A stretch of 20,000 nucleotides of DNA, from positions 52,074 to 72,073 of the IMG/VR virus record IMGVR_UViG_3300001605_000029. One strand, given 5' to 3'. Of the stretch, positions 3,492 to 16,190 are shown in pieces. The DNA comes from an uncultured virus (IMG/VR IMGVR_UViG_3300001605_000029) (Duplodnaviria > Heunggongvirae > Uroviricota > Caudoviricetes). A program made the position numbers and the translations under genes. The number at the start of each line of letters is the position of its first letter. Within the stretch, counting starts at the first letter, position 1. Below the pieces are notes generated by a model that saw only the letters and a list, made by a program, of their open reading frames with translations, had not been told where the DNA came from and ran no database searches.

Positions 3492-4609
3492 TTAATCAGG
3501 TCGAAATGGAGTCCAACGATCGCGGGGTACTAACTTCACTGAATCTCGGCCCTTAACATAACCTTCGCCGCCGGGCTTGCCGTCAGTAGTGGCAGTTATA
3601 TCGCCTATAGCAGCGTCTAATTCACGGATAATTTCATCTTTAGCTTTCATCAACTCTACTACTAGGGCAAACATAGCATCCATAGTTCCCTGATAGGTAT
3701 CGTTTAAACCCGCAATCTTTTGTTGCTGTCCGGTACTGACTTTGCTACCGGGTAACCATTCAAAGAACGTTTGACTATTAATTTTGTCCAAAGCTTTGGC
3801 CTTGCTTTGATTGTTGACAAAAGTGTAAATGATGTTTCGCAACCCGCTAAGACCCGGTATCGGGCTTAGAAGTTTATCTATGTTGGCAGTGTGTTGATTA
3901 GCTAACTTTTCAATGACTGCTAAATTGTCTGCATCAACAGCAGGTTTGGTACTGACATAGGTTAACCCAAATACTGCTAGTTCTGGGTTAGCTGCAAATG
4001 TTTCGGGATTTTCAAACGGCTCACCACGTCCATCACCAAAGTATTCATATGCTTGAATTGCTGCCACAGCAATCTTGGCCTTGGCCAATTTACGACCAAC
4101 TTCACTACTGCCCCTTACAGAATAAGTAGTTTGATTTGGAGTGAACGTTATTCTTCCATCAGCGCCTTGATAGGGCTTGCCCGGATGAAATAAAATATCA
4201 CCATAAACATATCCACGAAAGTCTTGGGGTGTTGCTTTTTCAAATATGGGCCACATTGATGCCATGTCAGAAGCAAACTTCTCACGCCAATCTTCTCCCT
4301 TGCCCCGACTCATGATGAATTGTTTAAGATCTTCTGGACTGCTGCTCTTGCCTTCTTCACGCCCCCTAGTTGTTCTTGCCCACCATACGGAAGGTACCGT
4401 CTTCGTCAACGACCCCAATAGACTGTAGGGTTACCATCCCACTTGATAGTAACATCGCTGGCATCTTGGCTTATATTCTTTAGAACGTTTACAGNCCGCA
4501 TTGCACCTTTAGGTTCTGTAAACACTAGATCTTCGAGGTGGTTAAATTCTCTACCTACTTTTTTAGGAGCAGGTGCCTCGGCCTCTGTAAGAAATTCAAA
4601 TGCTCTCAT
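3492..4609 (-). CDS. ATP-dependent ligase/capping-enzyme-like nucleotidyltransferase (DUF6267-like, recalled), ~371 aa after correcting two 1-nt insertions
   Basis: Removing one base at ~4408 and one at 4367 joins ORFs 4406..4609 and 3492..4418 as ...TIKWDGNPTVYWGR-DEDGTFRMVGKNN-WGREEGKSS.... Motifs: KxDG (I), YGDILF (III-like), EGYV (IV), VKLV (V-like). Confidence 0.65.
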
Positions 4610-6529: not shown

Positions 6530-7102
6530 ATGCATTTAGTCTATAGACTTCGTCCGGACGAGTACAGTAGATATCGCAAGCATCTATTAGCATTGGATGC
6601 TGACAGTAGATACACTCGTTTTGGCTACATGATCAAAGACGAAGTTATAGAGCAACTATGCGATCGATTCGAAGCTGATCCCAAAAACCATAAAATCTTT
6701 GTTATTGAAAACGAACAGTTGGAAGTGGTAGCAGCAGGACACATAGCATTAGAAGATGAGACTACCGAATTGGCGTTTTCAGTATTAAAAGAGTATCGCA
6801 AGCAAGGCATGGGCGATGCACTGATGAGACGCACTATTGAGTGGTGTCAGAATCGCAACATTAAAGGTGGCTGCATGGTCTGCCTTAGTACTAATGCTGC
6901 TATCAAAGCACTGGCCAAAAAGCACGGGGTGCTGATCAATCAAGGTGGCGAGACTATGGCAAATATTGAAATACCTCACAGCACGGCGGCCAGTATAATG
7001 AACGAAGCAGTTGATAGTAATCTTGCTAGACTGGATCACTTGGGCAAACTGCATCGCAATTTTGTCAAAACAATCACATTGCCTTTGCTTTTTACAAAAT
7101 AA
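6530..7102 (+). CDS. GNAT family N-acetyltransferase
   Basis: ELAFSVLKEYRKQGMGDALM contains acetyl-CoA motif A (R/Q-x-x-G-x-G); N-x-A-x-x-L motif downstream. Confidence 0.9.
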   Translation: MHLVYRLRPDEYSRYRKHLLALDADSRYTRFGYMIKDEVIEQLCDRFEADPKNHKIFVIENEQLEVVAAGHIALEDETTELAFSVLKEYRKQGMGDALMRRTIEWCQNRNIKGGCMVCLSTNAAIKALAKKHGVLINQGGETMANIEIPHSTAASIMNEAVDSNLARLDHLGKLHRNFVKTITLPLLFTK

Positions 7103-7115
7103 AGATATATACTAA

Positions 7116-7142
7116 TACAAGCAGCAGATATTGTTGCTTGTA
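7116..7142 (+). promoter_or_regulatory. Inverted repeat/hairpin upstream of the phasin-like gene
   Basis: TACAAGCAGCA-GATAT-TGTTGCTTGTA, an 11-bp stem with one G-U pair; preceded by GATATATA, a possible late-promoter variant. Confidence 0.55.
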
Positions 7143-7170
7143 GTAACATACACAAACACAGGAGAAAAAT

Positions 7171-7395
7171 ATGTTTACACCAGACGCTATCATCGACTCT
7201 ATCCAGAGCAGCAAAAAACAATTTGTCAATACATTCGTTACTGACAAAAAGTTCCAAACAGAATTGCATAAACTCATTGACGCTCAAGCCGAAGCTGCAA
7301 AAACTTCAGTCAAGGCATCTACAGCTATTGCTCAAGCATTTACCTCGCAAGCAACAACTACAATGAAGCAGTTCGTTCCTACCTACACTAAGTAA
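7171..7395 (+). CDS. Phasin-like small helical protein (74 aa)
   Basis: Strong AGGAGA RBS; Ala/Thr/Gln/Lys-rich amphipathic helical sequence. Family assignment is tentative. Confidence 0.5.
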   Translation: MFTPDAIIDSIQSSKKQFVNTFVTDKKFQTELHKLIDAQAEAAKTSVKASTAIAQAFTSQATTTMKQFVPTYTK

Positions 7396-7423
7396 TCATA
7401 AACATACACACAGGAAAAATATT

Positions 7424-7693
7424 ATGTCAGATTTTAATACACCCAAGCTACCAGAAGTAAAATTCAATAAGAACGGATACGAAATCCGCACAGACATTCT
7501 AGCAATGGCCAAAGACATGGTACAACAAGACTTCCAAGTTAAGTTTGCCGGTTGGGAAATGACTGCCGAACGAGATGAGAAGACTGGGCAAATCGTTAGC
7601 AAGGTCAATATGCCAGAGTTTCCGGGACTTGAGAAAGTCTTAGAAACCGCTGAAAAGATGTACAGTTTTGTAAATAGTGGTACTAAGAAGTAA
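7424..7693 (+). CDS. Hypothetical phage protein (89 aa)
   Basis: CAGGA RBS; the NGYEIRxxILxMAK...AEKMYSFV pattern is one I recall from T4-like phage hypothetical proteins. Confidence 0.8.
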   Translation: MSDFNTPKLPEVKFNKNGYEIRTDILAMAKDMVQQDFQVKFAGWEMTAERDEKTGQIVSKVNMPEFPGLEKVLETAEKMYSFVNSGTKK

Positions 7694-7762
7694 TTATATT
7701 AATTCCCGTGAGGGATGAAGAATTTATTATATCGGTGCATAGCACATTATTATACTAGTAAA

Positions 7763-7790
7763 GAAAAAGGGCCCCGAAGGGCCCTTTTTC
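7763..7790. terminator. Bidirectional intrinsic terminator
   Basis: GAAAAAGGGCCC-CGAA-GGGCCCTTTTTC between convergent genes. Confidence 0.9.
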
Positions 7791-8493
7791 ATGATCTAAC
7801 TTTGGCTAATTTAAAAAATTCAAATATTTTAAACCACATCCAGCCAATATCAAACTCAAACCATCGACGACTTAGTTTAGGGTTTGCAGGTTCCAAGTGG
7901 TGGTTATTGTGCAACTCTTCCCCACCGATTAGTATACCCCAAGGGCTGACATTCCTACTGTGATCCTTAGTTTCGCCATTGCGATATCCCCACCAGTGGC
8001 CAATACCGTTAATAAATCCGGCGGCCCAGAATGGGATCCAAATAAGTTGTACACCCCACACCAGGAATCCCCATGGCCCAAATAATAAAACGTCTATGAC
8101 CAACATTAAGAGAATACCATAGCGGTGATATGGTGTGTACACATTGCGTTCAATCCAATCTTTGGGGGTGCCGGCACCATACTTGACAATCATTGTGGCG
8201 TCTTTACCTGCAAGTTTATAATACTTGACTCCCCCGAATACTAGATTCCAAATTCCGAATACGTGTGGACTATGAGGATCGCCCTCGACGTCTGTGTTTT
8301 GATGATGTTTACGATGTATTGCTACCCATTGTTTGGTAGTCATTCCTGTAGTCATCCAAAGCCAGAAACGCATAAAATGACTTAATATTGGATGAAATTC
8401 AATTCCTCGATGTGCTTGATTTCTGTGTAGGTATAGTGTAACGCAGATAATAGTGATGTGTGTCACCATCAGTGTATATATTAGTTGTATCAT
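7789..8493 (-). CDS. desA: Membrane-bound delta-9-type fatty acid (acyl-CoA/acyl-lipid) desaturase
   Basis: Three His boxes (HRNQAH, HRKHH, HNNHH), GDPHSP and FDIGW motifs, and transmembrane segments. Confidence 0.92.
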   Translation of the reverse strand: MIQLIYTLMVTHITIICVTLYLHRNQAHRGIEFHPILSHFMRFWLWMTTGMTTKQWVAIHRKHHQNTDVEGDPHSPHVFGIWNLVFGGVKYYKLAGKDATMIVKYGAGTPKDWIERNVYTPYHRYGILLMLVIDVLLFGPWGFLVWGVQLIWIPFWAAGFINGIGHWWGYRNGETKDHSRNVSPWGILIGGEELHNNHHLEPANPKLSRRWFEFDIGWMWFKIFEFFKLAKVRS

Positions 8494-8552: not shown

Positions 8553-8783
8553 ATGCAGAAAACAAACGAAATCATACAATGGCTAGGTGCTGGTTTAATC
8601 ATCCTAGGACATATGTTTAATAGTATCGGACCATCAACATATCCTTGGAACATTGTAGTGTTTTCTCTAGGTGCTCTAATGTTTTTAATCTGGTCCATTA
8701 GAGTTTCAAACAAACCTCAATTTGCTGTTAACGCTGTTTCGTTAACAATTATCTTCATTGGACTTTATAAGGCTTTTTCATGA
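8553..8783 (+). CDS. Small 3-TM membrane protein (76 aa; PnuC-like/DUF6552-like, tentative)
   Basis: Start moved from 8460 to ATG 8553, downstream of the promoter; three hydrophobic helices; ATGA overlap with the next gene. Confidence 0.7.
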   Translation: MQKTNEIIQWLGAGLIILGHMFNSIGPSTYPWNIVVFSLGALMFLIWSIRVSNKPQFAVNAVSLTIIFIGLYKAFS

Positions 8784-9367
8784 AAAACAAAATTATCCTC
8801 ACGGACATCGACGGTGTGGCACTCGACTGGGAATATGCATTCGATGTGTGGATGCTACAACACGGATTTAACAAAGTAGAGGGCGGCAATCTAAAGTATG
8901 ATATTGGCAAACGCTATGGCATCGATAAGGATCAGGCAAAAAAGTTAATTCGCATGTTTAACGAAAGTGCAGCCATTGGGTTCCTGCCGCCTTTGCGTGA
9001 TGCTATGTATTATATTAAACGACTTCACGAAGAACACGGTTTTGTATTTCATGCAATTACAAGTTTGAGTAAGGATGAGAATGCTCAAGCACTTCGCTGT
9101 ATGAATTTAAAGAAATTGTTCGGAGAAACTGCGTTTGAAAAGTTTGTATTTCTGGACACCGGAGCCGACAAGGATGACGCATTGGAACCTTATCGAGACA
9201 GTGGATTATTTTGGATTGAAGACAAGACAGTCAATTGTGAACTTGGACATCGTCTGGGATTAAAAAGTATATTGATGCTGCATGGACACAGTTTGGATTA
9301 TGTAAATCCCGACATTCCTGTGGTTAAGAATTGGAAAGAGATCTACAACAATATTGTAGGAACGTAA
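8780..9367 (+). CDS. HAD-superfamily hydrolase, 5'(3')-deoxyribonucleotidase-like
   Basis: Motif I ILTDIDGV, motif II ITS, conserved K, motif IV WIEDK. Confidence 0.85.
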   Translation: MKNKIILTDIDGVALDWEYAFDVWMLQHGFNKVEGGNLKYDIGKRYGIDKDQAKKLIRMFNESAAIGFLPPLRDAMYYIKRLHEEHGFVFHAITSLSKDENAQALRCMNLKKLFGETAFEKFVFLDTGADKDDALEPYRDSGLFWIEDKTVNCELGHRLGLKSILMLHGHSLDYVNPDIPVVKNWKEIYNNIVGT

Positions 9368-9392
9368 AAAAAGCCCCGGAAGGGGCTTTCTT
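9366..9392. terminator. Bidirectional intrinsic terminator
   Basis: AAAGCCCC-GGAA-GGGGCTTT with an A-run on the left and a T-rich tail on the right. Confidence 0.9.
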
Positions 9393-9400
9393 GTATTAGT

Positions 9401-9499
9401 GGTCACTTAGAACGCCATTCCCGGGCACGACTCCGATAACGTTCTGCCCAGCACCCGGGCCACACTTGTAACGCAAAGCGTTCCTAAGGTAGTGTGATC
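9401..9499 (-). ncRNA. Candidate structured non-coding RNA
   Basis: GC-rich intergenic segment folding into three contiguous stem domains. Non-Watson-Crick pairs are G-U only on the minus strand. Confidence 0.65.
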
Positions 9500-10642
9500 T
9501 TAATAAAGCAGGTCTTCCTGTTGATCAGGTTCTCTTTCAAATGTAAACTCGTCTAGATTAACATTTGGATGACGGGCTTGTAACTTATCTTTTACATCTT
9601 GTTTGTTATCTCCATTGATTCGAGCAGTACGACCGCTGACTGTATGAGTTACTAGATAAGTTCCCGGGCCGTCTGTTACATCTTCGGCTTCATCGGCCTT
9701 GGAAGCATAGGACTGCGGATATTTTCTCTGTAGATCATTTACAGCCTTGTCAATGTCATAGCCTTCGCCAGTGCCGGTAATTTCAACACTGGCTTCTTTT
9801 ATTTCTTCAGCTTTGGCCTGTATTGCACCGGCAATTTTTTTCATCAACCCCGGAAATAAGTTAGCAAATCTATCGTCATTCCATTGGACATCATGTCTGC
9901 GAGTCTGATCACTGTCAACGATCTGATTTGTTGCAGCATGAATTTGCCACTTGCCTTCGTTGGTTCCCATGTTACTTTTGTCAGTGACAGAAATAATAGG
10001 TCCCCCTGGGGCATAATTCTTAAACCAACTTAGACCAGAACTGGACCCTGTACAGAAGTTACTTTGATAACCTGCTGCATTATTAAAAGTATAACAAGCA
10101 CCGTAGTTTAGTGGTATTACAACATTATATCTTTCGTTGTCGATCAGTACGATTTCTTTTTTATCTCGCTTGTGCTTTTCGATTATTTCAGCATCCTTGA
10201 TACGAGCAAGGTCGCTTCGATAATCTGAGCTGCGTACAATTTTTTGAATCTGTGCAAGATTTTTAAATTTATTAAAATCTTGATGTGCTGGCTGTAATCT
10301 GCCTCGAGTGCTTAGGGCTTTCCATGCACCCAGAGCATCACCACCTTCTCCGTTGATATCTTCGTAATCAACGGCACCATTCATGTATAAACGTGTTAAC
10401 CAATCATCAAACTTACCGTCGGCACTTATGTCCCCGTAGTCAGTTGTTCTCAAGCTGGCGTCTAAAATATCACTCCATAGCTTTAGTATTTGTTGATCTT
10501 CAGGCTTTGGTCCAAGCGAGGCAATCTTGCTTCTTGGCAAAGTACCGTCGTGACGCATAGCAATTCCCAACATTTTTATAACCTTGGGATCTTTAATCTT
10601 AGCCGCAACGTTGGCTTCTGTAAAAACTTTAGTGATTCTCAT
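9500..10642 (-). CDS. Hypothetical internal head protein (380 aa) with a PcfJ-like central domain (tentative)
   Basis: Leader MRITKVFTEA; PLNYGAC...FCT...WF..Y...GP...KWQIH...Q pattern. Confidence 0.6.
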   Translation of the reverse strand: MRITKVFTEANVAAKIKDPKVIKMLGIAMRHDGTLPRSKIASLGPKPEDQQILKLWSDILDASLRTTDYGDISADGKFDDWLTRLYMNGAVDYEDINGEGGDALGAWKALSTRGRLQPAHQDFNKFKNLAQIQKIVRSSDYRSDLARIKDAEIIEKHKRDKKEIVLIDNERYNVVIPLNYGACYTFNNAAGYQSNFCTGSSSGLSWFKNYAPGGPIISVTDKSNMGTNEGKWQIHAATNQIVDSDQTRRHDVQWNDDRFANLFPGLMKKIAGAIQAKAEEIKEASVEITGTGEGYDIDKAVNDLQRKYPQSYASKADEAEDVTDGPGTYLVTHTVSGRTARINGDNKQDVKDKLQARHPNVNLDEFTFEREPDQQEDLLY

Positions 10643-11501: not shown

Positions 11502-11509
11502 TATTTATC
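11502..11509 (-). promoter_or_regulatory. T4-like late promoter (GATAAATA) built on the upstream TAA stop
   Basis: TAAATA, then 5 nt, then ATG 11496. Confidence 0.55.
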
Positions 11510-12349: not shown

Positions 12350-12802
12350 TTAATTGCACCAGCTTTGTTTTGCGTCACCGTAGTACTCACGGGCATGACC
12401 ATTGGCAATAAGTCCACGGCGAACACTTTGTCCGTTGACCACAATATCACCGATAACACGGCCGCCAAATTTGTCCCACTTGTACAGTATGACTTTACGA
12501 TTAGGTGAGCTGTTGACCAAATCTGTTGTCCACTTGCTGGCCGCTTGAGCTCGTTGATCTTCTTGTGGGCACTGAGCTCTATGTCCTTTTTCCGGAGTGT
12601 CCACACCGTAGATACGCACTGCTAGTTCTGGCTTGAGTGGTTGTGGCAAGAATGGTGCTGAGATCACAATGGTGTCGCCGTCACTTATACGGATAATCTG
12701 TGCGTCATAGGTCACACCTGCGGGTTCTTTGGGTGCTTTGACTTGTGCAAATGCCGGTACAGCAATAACTGTTGCTAATAAAAATACAAATAACTTGTTC
12801 AT
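12350..12802 (-). CDS. Thermonuclease (SNase-like) with signal peptide
   Basis: DGDT, VRIYGVDTPE and DKFGGR motifs; signal peptide MNKLFVFLLATVIAVPAFA. Confidence 0.92.
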   Translation of the reverse strand: MNKLFVFLLATVIAVPAFAQVKAPKEPAGVTYDAQIIRISDGDTIVISAPFLPQPLKPELAVRIYGVDTPEKGHRAQCPQEDQRAQAASKWTTDLVNSSPNRKVILYKWDKFGGRVIGDIVVNGQSVRRGLIANGHAREYYGDAKQSWCN

Positions 12803-12824: not shown

Positions 12825-12832
12825 TATTTATC
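12825..12832 (-). promoter_or_regulatory. T4-like late promoter (GATAAATA) built on the upstream TAA stop
   Basis: TAAATA core followed by an AAGGA RBS and ATG 12802. Confidence 0.6.
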
Positions 12833-15800
12833 GTCTCACAAAGTGATAATCACCATCAGGTCCGTTGTTGCTAAACAGCCCTGTACAATCGAATCCTATT
12901 GTGTCCATATAAGTTATTACAGTGTCTTTTAACGGAGCACCTTTGTTATATTCCACAGCTTGTAGCTCTAATATAACATGTTTTACAGTTGTTAGCACTT
13001 GGCTTGCACCCTTTAGAACATCCAACTCAGCACCCTGAACATCCATCTTGATTAAATCGGGCAAAGGAAACTGTTTTAATCTAACCACTGCATCTAATGT
13101 TGCAGTTTTTAACACTCGCTTGTGGTTTTCGTTAAAATATTGGGGTGCTTCTGGATTGACTTCAGCATTTTCTCTGTAATAGCTATTGCCACCAGGATGC
13201 CAGTCATTTTGATAAAACTCTACTTCTTTACCAGTAACATCGCTCAGTGCCCCCATAAAATACTTTAAGTTCTGTTCTTTGTACAAAAATTCGCTAGAGT
13301 CCATAGCTTCAAATGCCACAAATTCTGCACTGGGCCATATGCGTTTTGCTTCGTTAGTCCAGTGTAAAACACAGGCTCCTACATCATATATTACTCGAGG
13401 TTCAAAACCTTGTGCCTTTAGTTTGGCAAGATAACCAACGTGGTCAGCTGGGATTAATCTTTGACTGCCCAGTTCACGTAAGCGTGTTTCGATATTGACA
13501 GGTGCAGCTTCAACTACAGCTGGTATATTGTTGTCTACGTTGAATGTAAAGCTGCCTGTGTGATTGCACTGTATACTAGTGTCGGCCCACAAGCGGAATC
13601 CCTTGTTTGTGGCTTTACGACAAAAATCTACATCTTCACTAATGGTATTTCTGTGGTCAACCGCACTATGGTACTTAAATTGAGGATAATCTACAGCTTT
13701 TAACACTTGACTCTTGACCAACACACAGCCAAATCCGCAGCTGGCAATTTCCACTAGACCCTTGCCTTTAATTTTTCCATAAGGTATATTGCTTACTCCG
13801 CCTGTGTTGTTGTTTTCATACAATTCTAGTACGTGTTGTCCTGGCTTGCGTTGAATGTAAAGACCTGACACAAGATCCTTGTCGTGTGACAGCAGCTTGA
13901 CTAATGTATCGGGAGCAAAGCTGATGTCGCTGTCCACACTGAACAGGTAGTCATATCCTTTGACTACCCAGTCTGCTATCAAGTTTCTAACTTGATCAAT
14001 GTTATAGCCGTAGAAGTATTGAAATGTGGTTTGGTAGCCCTCGGGCACTATTAGATCGTAGATGCTCTTGTATGTCTCGGGCTCTATGTTCTTGGCTGTG
14101 GGTATCGCTATTAGGATTCTTTTTTTTTCTGTTGACATTTTTACAATTTCTCTTGCGTTTTTATTTTGTTCTTGTGCATTGACTTTGTAGTCGTTGAGTG
14201 GATTGACATCGTTGTAATTGTACACTACGTCCTGCAGGCATTTAACTTTGTCAGCGTCAGCTGCTTCTATCAGTGCATAAAATACTGATCCATCACCACC
14301 TGCTCGATACCATTGTCCTGTGTCATCTTTAAACTGTGCATCTTCGCAACTGTTCAATAGATGCTTTTTAAATGTTCTCAAATGTGTATAAGGTAAAATC
14401 CAGTTGAAGTGATGTTGCCTATATGTCTTGTTCTGTCGAACTTTTTGAGGATAGGGCTGACTGATCAAAGGAATATTGTCCGCCATACTCCAACAGCTTC
14501 CGTAGGTAAATTCTGTTGTGCCATTGTATATGCTGTTATAATAACTGAATACAGTATTGTCATTGACTAGCGTGTCATCACCGTCTAACAACATTATGAT
14601 AGCATTGTCGTCTAATGGTCTGATGTTTTCTATTTGATTACGAACGGCACCTTGATTTTCTTTGTTGTTGATTAATAGAAATTTGCCTTTAAGTTCTTCT
14701 GGCAAGTTGCTTAATGCTGTTTTGACCACATCCGCAGAATCGTCAGTACTGGCATCGTTGATCAAGTAATGCAGATAGTTGTCGTAATCTTGTGCAGCTA
14801 CACTGGCAATACATTTTTCGATATACTTGCTGCAATTATAAAAAGGACTGATCACTACAATCTGCTGTTCTCTACCTGATTTGTAGTTTTCCAGCTCAAC
14901 TGTGTTGTGAAACTTGCGATTGTATATCTTGTGCAGTCTGTGGTTGATTTTACTCACAGCACGATAGTCTTGTTTGCTGAGATAGTGTCCTGCTTTTTTA
15001 TAAAAGTGCTGCTTCCATTGTAGTGCTACACTGTCCCATCCGGCGGTTTCTTTTACTATGTTGCAGTAGTATTGCTTTTGTTGATGCAAGTAAGGATTAC
15101 GATAAGCTTCTACAGTGGTCTTGACAAACTGTTCAACTTGTTGCGGAACGTTTATGTCCGGAAACAAGCTATTGGGTTCTATAGCATAGTCAATTAAATA
15201 ACAAGCACCTGCTAGGGCAATTTCTTCCAGTGCTCCAAAGCGGCAAGTTATGATTGGAGTATTGTAGCACAAACTTTCCATTGAGGAAATGCCATACGTT
15301 TCGGGAAATGCCGCGGGGTACAGCATAAAGTTTGCTTGAGTTAGTATATCAGCAATTTCCCGTTGACTGATAACGCCCGTAAACTCTATATCTAGTGCTG
15401 CTAGTGCAGGATCAGCAGCCATAACTCGCCAATCTTTTTCCTGTTGGTCGGGTTCTGCATTGGTGCTGAATCTATAATAACCGCCTATAACTTTTAACTT
15501 GGCTTCGGGTATGTGTCGTTTTAGATGTGGCCATATCATCTTGACCAGTGGTATCATGCCTTTAGTAACACTTGCATTATAGACAAACAAGTTCTTGTCT
15601 TTGGCCGCAATGTCTACTTCATCGTGATAAATCCTAACACCGTTGCGTGTTATAAACAGCTTGTTCTTCAACACTTCAAAGTTACGTCTGCGGCCATGAT
15701 TGCAATTGGCAATGTAAGTAGTGTGCCAATCGCTAAGTGTAAAAATATCTGTGATTCGATTGTTCACAGCTAGTTCTTCAATCAAGTTGTCGCCAAGACA

Positions 15801-16190
15801 AAATGTATCATGCATCCACAGCACTCGCATTTTGGCCTTGCTGAGAATCCTATCATAAAGATTCATAGTGGCAAAACGATTGCTTCTGTTGTCGGTTAAT
15901 CTGGCGTAGTCTTTTGGATCGGTAAATGGGATCACAGTTCTTGAACTGATCACTATGTCAAATTCATAGTCTTGTGCCAACGCAGACAGTGGGCGATAGG
16001 TCACAGTGTCATAGATGCCCGGCTCAGCATGATCCATATCACAGTTGTTAAAAACTGTAACTTCAAATCCAATTTCTGCAAGTTCTTTGGCCATTAGAGT
16101 GACAGCACTTTCGCTGCCACCAAGGCCTTGTTTGAATACTGTAGTTCCGTCGTATGGGATACCTATAACGTCTATAATAGCAATTCTCAT
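12828..16190 (-). CDS. Multidomain glycosyltransferase: GT4 + GT2 + GT2-like + FkbM-family methyltransferase (1120 aa)
   Basis: GT4: GLGGSE and ETYGISSMES. GT2: SPFYN, INDASTD, LDGDD. Second GT-A domain: SVDSD, GFGCVLV, SEDVDFC. FkbM: YDVGA, IKMDVQGAELDVLKG. Confidence 0.9.
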   Translation of the reverse strand: MRIAIIDVIGIPYDGTTVFKQGLGGSESAVTLMAKELAEIGFEVTVFNNCDMDHAEPGIYDTVTYRPLSALAQDYEFDIVISSRTVIPFTDPKDYARLTDNRSNRFATMNLYDRILSKAKMRVLWMHDTFCLGDNLIEELAVNNRITDIFTLSDWHTTYIANCNHGRRRNFEVLKNKLFITRNGVRIYHDEVDIAAKDKNLFVYNASVTKGMIPLVKMIWPHLKRHIPEAKLKVIGGYYRFSTNAEPDQQEKDWRVMAADPALAALDIEFTGVISQREIADILTQANFMLYPAAFPETYGISSMESLCYNTPIITCRFGALEEIALAGACYLIDYAIEPNSLFPDINVPQQVEQFVKTTVEAYRNPYLHQQKQYYCNIVKETAGWDSVALQWKQHFYKKAGHYLSKQDYRAVSKINHRLHKIYNRKFHNTVELENYKSGREQQIVVISPFYNCSKYIEKCIASVAAQDYDNYLHYLINDASTDDSADVVKTALSNLPEELKGKFLLINNKENQGAVRNQIENIRPLDDNAIIMLLDGDDTLVNDNTVFSYYNSIYNGTTEFTYGSCWSMADNIPLISQPYPQKVRQNKTYRQHHFNWILPYTHLRTFKKHLLNSCEDAQFKDDTGQWYRAGGDGSVFYALIEAADADKVKCLQDVVYNYNDVNPLNDYKVNAQEQNKNAREIVKMSTEKKRILIAIPTAKNIEPETYKSIYDLIVPEGYQTTFQYFYGYNIDQVRNLIADWVVKGYDYLFSVDSDISFAPDTLVKLLSHDKDLVSGLYIQRKPGQHVLELYENNNTGGVSNIPYGKIKGKGLVEIASCGFGCVLVKSQVLKAVDYPQFKYHSAVDHRNTISEDVDFCRKATNKGFRLWADTSIQCNHTGSFTFNVDNNIPAVVEAAPVNIETRLRELGSQRLIPADHVGYLAKLKAQGFEPRVIYDVGACVLHWTNEAKRIWPSAEFVAFEAMDSSEFLYKEQNLKYFMGALSDVTGKEVEFYQNDWHPGGNSYYRENAEVNPEAPQYFNENHKRVLKTATLDAVVRLKQFPLPDLIKMDVQGAELDVLKGASQVLTTVKHVILELQAVEYNKGAPLKDTVITYMDTIGFDCTGLFSNNGPDGDYHFVRR

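Follow-up and report, generated by a model that had tools for sequence, protein, structure and literature searches.

A family of pseudoknotted RNAs in T4-like huge phages with complementarity to helices 69-70 of 23S rRNA

We are not aware of any RNA, in bacteria or in phages, that works in nature by pairing with the 23S rRNA functional core, and a literature search, in which subscription journals were thinly covered, returned no description of the RNA reported here or of any phage RNA pairing with 23S. The described systems that come closest touch it from different sides. Helix 69 (H69) of 23S rRNA forms the intersubunit bridge B2a and is the trigger for recycling (PMC2602781); the same source places rDNA mobile elements (group I and archaeal introns, I-PpoI, I-Vdi141I) at bases 1915-1938. 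A PNA directed against H69 blocks translation (Kulik et al. 2017, as cited in PMC12828698), and the RNA described here, which we call type A, is likewise antisense to H69. T4 itself possesses small stable RNAs, rnaC and rnaD (NC_000866.4; 119-139 nt), which type A recalls as a small RNA of T4-like phages; unlike type A, they sit in a tRNA cluster, and they were rejected as relatives, having no sequence or model match to type A and no 23S seed.

The window studied here is a 20,000-nt stretch of DNA from an uncultured caudovirus (IMG/VR record IMGVR_UViG_3300001605_000029). On its minus strand the type A RNA is predicted, from homologues, to extend over 97 nt (9400..9496), from helix P1 through the 3' tail. 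Its 5' end lies 4 nt past the stop codon of a 380-aa ORF (9500..10642, minus), which is unannotated and has no assigned family, and its 3' end falls about 10 nt ahead of a terminator-like hairpin of the intrinsic type (9366..9389). This hairpin is placed between converging genes, the other being the 195-aa ORF phrog_420 (8780..9367, plus), and is common to both sides; the terminator program lists it on plus, and the sequence shows a run of seven U on minus. The original prediction had put a GC-rich segment of an AT-rich genome between a late gene and its terminator, and the locus agrees with it on position and on composition (57% GC in the element, 41% in the window). A TAAATA box (11502..11507, minus), which we take to resemble the T4 late promoter motif, precedes the 287-aa and 380-aa ORFs and is likely the start of the transcript that carries type A. 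The 380-aa ORF is a neighbour of the RNA and not an obligate partner; its protein was rejected in that role because it has no match in five records that carry type A, A' or B RNA.

The virus record from which the window comes has 72 kb and is rated 20% complete, so that the full genome would be about 350 kb. A near-complete record of 354 kb with a type A RNA (G004) encodes gp23, gp15, terminase and UvsW and is a T4-like myovirus. Record G000 gave a single match to the RNA (E 1.4e-26). Type A is a minus-strand RNA of T4-like huge phages. The genome of G004 (L842-L859) is also rich in other functions, with 21 tRNAs, TctC and DctP binding proteins, a Clp-type AAA chaperone, DnaJ, a chaperonin, SOD, ferritin, GTP cyclohydrolase I, PTPS and many radical-SAM and sugar enzymes; the presence of TctC hints at a betaproteobacterial host. 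The window has peculiarities of its own. A host-like cluster (6530-8493) includes a GNAT acetyltransferase (6530-7102), a fatty-acid desaturase (7789-8493) and two small unannotated ORFs, one of which (7171-7395) appears phasin-like by eye and is putative. The minus strand encodes an SNase-family nuclease with a signal-peptide-like N-terminus (12350-12802) and a 1120-aa fusion of two types of glycosyltransferase with an FkbM methyltransferase (12828-16190). Near 4493, an ambiguous base puts an X into the translation of the ORF at 4406-4609 (minus), which together with 3492-4418 resembles a single DUF6267 gene in two pieces, possibly as the result of an assembly error.

The element is conserved. 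With nhmmer it was found in 19 of the 38 loci that carry a relative of the 380-aa gene; a pattern scan of IMG/VR gave an estimated 320 or so stretches, and a looser scan of metagenomes about 550, chance matches included. Parsing of 246 matches yielded 164 distinct type A copies (the truncated L141 and L116, with one seed change, were left out), which are 74-103 nt long, with a minimal form of about 75 nt (L067), and are present as a single copy per genome in the long records searched. In another pattern scan about 12 of 120 loci looked like family members, the rest being mostly noise, and a loose-pattern scan of genome contigs (4 of 64 parts) gave no family member among 119 loci. Type A was not found by a model search of five bacterial genomes or by a pattern search of 101 genomes from the order of a Comamonadaceae MAG, and the cultured phages of INPHARED contain no homologue of type A, of its sister form type B (see below) or of the 380-aa protein. 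Divergent members include G017:C1:185438-185546, G001:C1:273799-273893, L870 and L893; the first of these has a possible loop-tail pseudoknot of 8 bp and one seed mismatch, and G001 and L893 share a UUCG-type P5 loop with compensatory pairs.

The RNA consists of two parts. Domain 1 (9461..9496) is closed by P1, a helix of six pairs (9491-9496/9461-9466), which encloses the seed loop and the short helix P2 (9478-9482/9470-9474). The 3' domain is made of the P3 hairpin (9446..9460), of the outer stem P4 (9437-9445/9409-9417) of the segment 9409..9445 and, inside the latter, of P5 (9433-9436/9421-9424), which continues past a bulged A9432 into a G9431-C9425 pair and a loop at 9426-9430. All five helices are present at the coordinates proposed for them originally. 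For the hairpin given as 9446-9451/9455-9460, a better description than six continuous pairs is a 4-bp stem (9457-9460/9446-9449) followed by a G9456-C9451 pair, a bulged U9450 and a 4-nt loop.

Taken alone, the window sequence folds no better than its own shuffles (z -0.77 on minus, -0.22 on plus), and therefore the case for a structured RNA rests on homologues. Covariation in the 3' domain was assessed on an alignment of 60 sequences of the window's subtype, enriched for variants. P3, P4 and P5 show two-sided changes; over the 3' domain, 96% of the cells are paired and such changes occur at 16 of 25 pairs. This score was reached by none of 500 shuffles, and slid controls gave 33-50%. P1 shows two-sided changes at four of its six pairs, its lower proportion of paired cells (70%) being due to register shifts in the alignment, and P2, counted on two columns only, shows none. 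Covariation, called for as a check on the stems, thus backs P1, P3, P4 and P5 and gives nothing for P2. The fold is also strand-specific. Within P4, the 164 copies contain 191 G.U and 6 A.C appositions when read on the gene-sense strand, and in 93 of the 101 copies with enough flank the RNA shares its strand with the upstream gene, which bears out minus as the transcribed strand, as first deduced from the imperfect pairs of the window.

Two pseudoknots, formed by the 3' tail with the loops of two hairpins, are supported by comparison of the copies. The first joins the P3 loop (9453-9455) to the tail strand 9401..9403: among the 164 copies, loop and tail triplets combine as GCU/AGC (155), GGU/ACC (6) or CCU/AGG (3), never as a mismatch. 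The window copy is one of the six with GGU/ACC, a compensatory flip from C-G to G-C; its nearest relative, 7% distant, has the common GCU/AGC form, and nearest-neighbour distances suggest that the flip arose about four separate times. The second pseudoknot joins the P5 loop (9427-9429) to the tail strand 9404..9406, and all 167 sequences compared form each of its three pairs; one of these is U.G in 161, U-A in 4 and C-G in 2, so that the support comes from six variant sequences. Both had been missed originally, when the tail segment 9406-9410 was paired with the loop segment 9484-9488. That pairing can form in most copies (all five pairs in 125 of 164 with one bulge allowed, four in 35, three in 4); it does not covary, has a C.A mismatch in 4 of 165 sequences, and competes with P4 and, through one base in common, with the second pseudoknot. 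It may represent a masked alternative state. In the free fold of the window copy most of the seed is predicted to be paired with the tail, and in the family structure, where the seed was constrained to be unpaired, it is looped out.

Comparison with catalogued RNAs came out empty at the element. Rfam 15 gave no match with E<=1 in the window or in sets of 14 and 13 loci, and none at the gathering score in 20 loci; ARAGORN found 0 tRNA or tmRNA genes in the window. Both results accord with the failure to recognize a tRNA, tmRNA or known ribozyme by eye, and the covariance-model check against Rfam that had been proposed leaves the family uncatalogued. The core motifs of hammerhead, hairpin and pistol ribozymes occur in none of 164 type A and 66 type B copies; a crude HDV-loop motif matches 14 type A and 52 type B copies, in which inspection showed the HDV helix order to be absent. 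The genes that flank type A fall into many clusters on both sides, and the upstream genes are unrelated to each other. Several other candidates were rejected, namely a riboswitch or cis-regulatory leader (downstream genes in many clusters, 27 of 103 of them on the opposite strand), the antitoxin from a toxin-antitoxin system of type III (single copy, no tandem repeats, position downstream of varied genes), and a stop-codon readthrough pseudoknot (spacing of 5-21 nt without a fixed distance, 58 of 73 stops TAA, a second stop following in frame 1-49 codons later in 72 of 73, lengths spread over all three frames). No Nop domain or pseudouridine synthase, as would partner a box C/D or H/ACA RNA, was matched by Pfam in 297 of the 424 ORFs of G004. 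Among the functions originally listed for the element, a small RNA fits best and a ribozyme would match no catalogued class; nothing speaks for a packaging RNA or for a regulator of a single gene, the neighbouring genes being variable.

The main feature of type A, which went unnoticed in the original prediction, is that its 5' domain is the reverse complement of helices 69-70 of 23S rRNA (E. coli 1908–1933). The likeness was tested on sequence, with E. coli rrnB as the reference. In the window, an 11-nt seed (9482..9492, minus), which contains the core CUUAG (9484-9488), is exactly complementary to 23S 1923-1933, and a second stretch, GUUAC (9468..9472), found in domain 1 of 105 of the 164 copies, is complementary to the H69 loop at 1910-1914. 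The longest antisense match to 23S begins at 1910-1929 in 163 of 164 copies, and the best copy in local alignment, L596, matches 23 of the 24 nt of 1908-1931, a stretch which BLAST places on annotated 23S rRNA. In local alignment to 23S, 84 of 164 copies, which are related and not independent events, exceed the maximum of 1,500 shuffles. Ranking of predicted duplexes among 438 rRNA windows puts H69-70 first in 38 of the 40 type A copies sampled, in the window's own copy, and in only 19 of 40 sampled type B copies. The match in the window is 11 nt long, with a score of 23 that is inside the shuffle range; complementarity of the seed beyond chance, as expected of a trans-acting antisense sRNA, is found for the family and is weak for the window copy alone.

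A 3'-domain pattern blind to the seed drew 99 distinct copies, every one of which has the seed core (one further match lies on a truncated contig); this is the unbiased figure, other counts of seed invariance being partly built into the parser and the search patterns. Minimal forms lacking P2 retain a perfect 23S match of 11-13 nt centred on the loop, and of the 66 type B copies 51 have G and 11 have A at the position facing U1923. Single seed mismatches occur in L077, L116, G001 and G017, and outside 23S 1923-1930 there are many substitutions that wobble pairing does not tolerate. A second possible rRNA contact, of the P3 loop with the 16S 530 loop, was rejected: 133 of 164 copies have their longest 16S match there, mostly of 10-11 nt, which is within the range of shuffles, and the pairing is broken in nine pseudoknot-flip copies and missing in G017. 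The likeness of the 3' domain to 16S helix 18 is within chance as well.

The seed is found on scaffolds other than type A, which are interchangeable. In L017 and L024, type B occupies the same place beside the same gene instead of type A. Type B, known from 66 distinct copies (L017, L024, L159-L238 and L716-L835, e.g., L162:239-341 minus; L809 is not counted, nor are five seedless matches of the pattern), presents the same 5' seed in a short hairpin, along with a bulged-U hairpin, and has its modules in a different order. It pairs the GG of the seed loop into the hairpin, and the loop of its bulged-U hairpin takes part in a covarying 3-bp pseudoknot of its own, paired in 66 of 66 copies. An unrelated phage record of 87 kb (G032) carries it too, behind an endonuclease-like gene; no dedicated protein partner is evident among the 11 proteins that G032 has in common with G004. 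Among 35 long records, picked via the matches found here and with only four carriers at least 90% complete, 14 have a clear type A, 14 have type B, one has a divergent type A (G017) and six have neither; carriers have one copy each and none has both types, which suggests that A and B are mutually exclusive. Type C, at four loci (L867, L869, L881 and L891, around 1500), has a P1/seed domain as in type A, followed by a linker, AAGGAG, that resembles a Shine-Dalgarno sequence and by a 3' domain of another kind; it has no Rfam match, and the records of three of these loci contain no separate type A or B.

Part of this 23S stretch also occurs in phages outside these folds. A single perfect 16-nt antisense probe had 31 matches in IMG/VR, which a crude ORF caller divides into 2 in rDNA, 4 ORF-like and 25 intergenic, with six near-duplicate pairs among them, and many of the matches are in the antisense polarity after a stop codon. 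At nine loci (L875, L876, L878, L879, L880, L884, L886, L888 and L892) a bare antisense seed of 16-24 nt lies 6-15 nt past a stop, at several of them with a terminator-like hairpin directly after the seed. Near tRNAs, the tRNA strand bears the sense rRNA sequence at 7 of 8 probe matches, so that the polarity is not uniform across phages. These sense copies of H69-H70, 16-25 nt long (L864, L871, L872, L877, L883, L890 and L894, around 1500), are possible rRNA mimics or decoys; in L872 and L890 they follow shortly on the 3' end of a tRNA-Pro. Phages thus keep this 23S stretch in both polarities. The tRNA arrays of L872, which also carries a tmRNA, and of L890 contain weak matches to YrlA (Y RNA-like) below the gathering score (L872:2486-2589; L890:855-1008 and 2386-2533).

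The best reading of type A, to which we assign a little less than an even chance, is a late small RNA that would pair with 23S rRNA and block joining of the large subunit. In its favour are the complementarity to 23S, the conserved seed, the exchange of scaffolds, the common strand with varied upstream genes and the published findings on H69. The RNA would come off the 3' end of a late transcript, and its target would be the 23S stretch in free or assembling large subunits. The near-copy of the target in the tail may mask the seed, through the pairing 9484-9488/9406-9410, until rRNA displaces the tail. The seed loop would then nucleate on 23S 1922-1931, and pairing could zip into the H69 strand (1908-1921), opening both P2 and H69; the loss of bridge B2a would keep large subunits from joining small ones. 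The 3' domain, with its tail threaded through two loops, would lend stability to the 3' end and is possibly a protein-binding site. Parking of 50S subunits might serve to throttle translation, to store or shield subunits, or to exclude later phages.

Several points count against this reading. Within 70S ribosomes the 23S stretch is folded, and late infection is a time when a lytic phage still depends on ribosomes. The seed gives no account of the invariant 3' domain, and P2 is sometimes capped by a UUCG loop, which would resist opening. The short match of the window copy, the relatedness of the copies, the lower ranking of H69-70 in type B, the seed mismatches and the mixed polarity across phages, all described above, also tell against it. 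A broader proposition, which we favour slightly over its negation, is that phage RNAs pair with the host 23S core at H69-H70 in order to control or protect ribosomes, using interchangeable scaffolds, and that the sense copies act as decoys.

The same complementarity would suit a counter-defence mask, an RNA that shields 23S from a host rRNA-cleaving toxin, or splints it after cleavage, with no inhibition of translation and with the sense copies of other phages as decoys for the same host enzyme. MazF-mt3 and MazF-mt6 cut loop 70 of 23S (PMC7180214), and the sense H69-H70 copies sit inside tRNA arrays. Yet the MazF sites UCCUU and UUCCU, at about 1939-1944, fall just outside the type A seed, these phages have no known host or defence system, and pairing at H69 should itself impair subunit joining; we regard a mask as improbable, though not negligibly so.

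Rather unlikely, in our estimate, is a new catalytic RNA, self-cleaving or 3'-end-forming, whose rRNA-like stretch would be a capture relic or part of an intramolecular core. A minimal form of about 75 nt, the double pseudoknot, many invariant loop bases, the permuted sister form, the position right past stop codons and the ability of the seed to pair inside the RNA would all suit a ribozyme; the seed, however, stays while the 3' domain is swapped entirely, each genome has a single copy, and neither Rfam nor the motif searches described above produced a ribozyme.

The distance to the upstream gene bears on a cis-acting 3' UTR element that would catch the terminating ribosome via H69, the trigger for recycling (PMC2602781), and so affect recycling or re-initiation. 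In 73 copies the seed lies 5-21 nt past the stop codon, mostly 7-11 nt, and many copies end 8-17 nt ahead of the downstream start. Such short spacing is, however, expected anyway in compact genomes, about one third of the copies are 55-400 nt from the upstream stop, the downstream gene is on the opposite strand in 27 of 103 copies, and the upstream genes have no relationship among themselves; we doubt this explanation strongly.

The invariant 3' domain and the frequency of nuclease genes among the upstream neighbours (family names being partly our own judgement) could point to a protein-binding decoy or an antitoxin-like pseudoknot comparable to phage mimics of type III antitoxins, and the loop CUUAGGA, which we take to have the form of a Leu(UAG) anticodon loop, to a tRNA mimic; in either case the rRNA match would be incidental. 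This leaves matches of up to 23 of 24 nt to 23S unexplained. Tandem repeats are absent, type B pairs the GG of the loop into its hairpin, G004 encodes its own tRNA-Leu(UAG), and the 11 proteins shared by the A-bearing huge phage and the B-bearing small phage are mostly generic; we consider a decoy or mimic very unlikely. A DNA-level site, i.e., a copy of an rDNA homing-endonuclease target or insertion site without an RNA role for the seed, is hardly credible: bases 1915-1938 are a known target of this kind (PMC2602781) and the motif occurs in phages in both polarities, but the seed is part of a loop in an RNA fold that covaries and is strand-specific, conservation does not extend to the full site, and the phage would have no apparent benefit.

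Type A is a real, uncatalogued RNA family with a strong predicted link to a ribosomal subunit bridge. If the link is true, it would give a virus a new means of controlling or protecting host ribosomes, a natural "antibiotic" or shield of antisense type directed at the rRNA itself, and evolution would have supplied a lead for antisense agents against bridge B2a. Natural compensatory variants and the 75-nt minimal form make the proposal directly testable in an E. coli translation system, which is suitable because the 23S target is identical in E. coli. Even if pairing fails, there remains a pseudoknotted RNA that is well supported, absent from the catalogues and accompanied by a permuted sister form.

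Among known systems, the structured RNAs of Fremin et al. 2023 come from the same collection, IMG/VR, and type A could be among their 8,495 unnamed candidates; its motif strings and four sample identifiers were not found in the four supplements searched, and the portion of the text examined has no rRNA complementarity (PMC10690425). Phage ribozymes (hammerhead, twister, pistol, HDV-like/theta) resemble type A in size, nested pseudoknots, invariant loops, intergenic position and the existence of permuted forms. An intron guide sequence at 1915-1938 would also be antisense to rRNA; type A differs from the rDNA mobile elements in having no intron core, no endonuclease gene tied to the RNA and a length of only 74-103 nt. 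Unlike the artificial anti-H69 PNA, the phage seed is natural and centres on 1922-1931, the H69-H70 junction. Trans-acting antisense RNAs that present a loop, such as CopA/CopT, RNA I/RNA II and the seed-pairing bacterial sRNAs, share with type A a short conserved seed, which in type A is predicted to lie in a loop, along with pairing that can be extended, a variable scaffold and a 3' position near a terminator. Type A is set apart from them by belonging to no Rfam family, by its double-pseudoknot 3' domain and by its predicted target, which is the core of 23S rRNA and not an mRNA or a primer.
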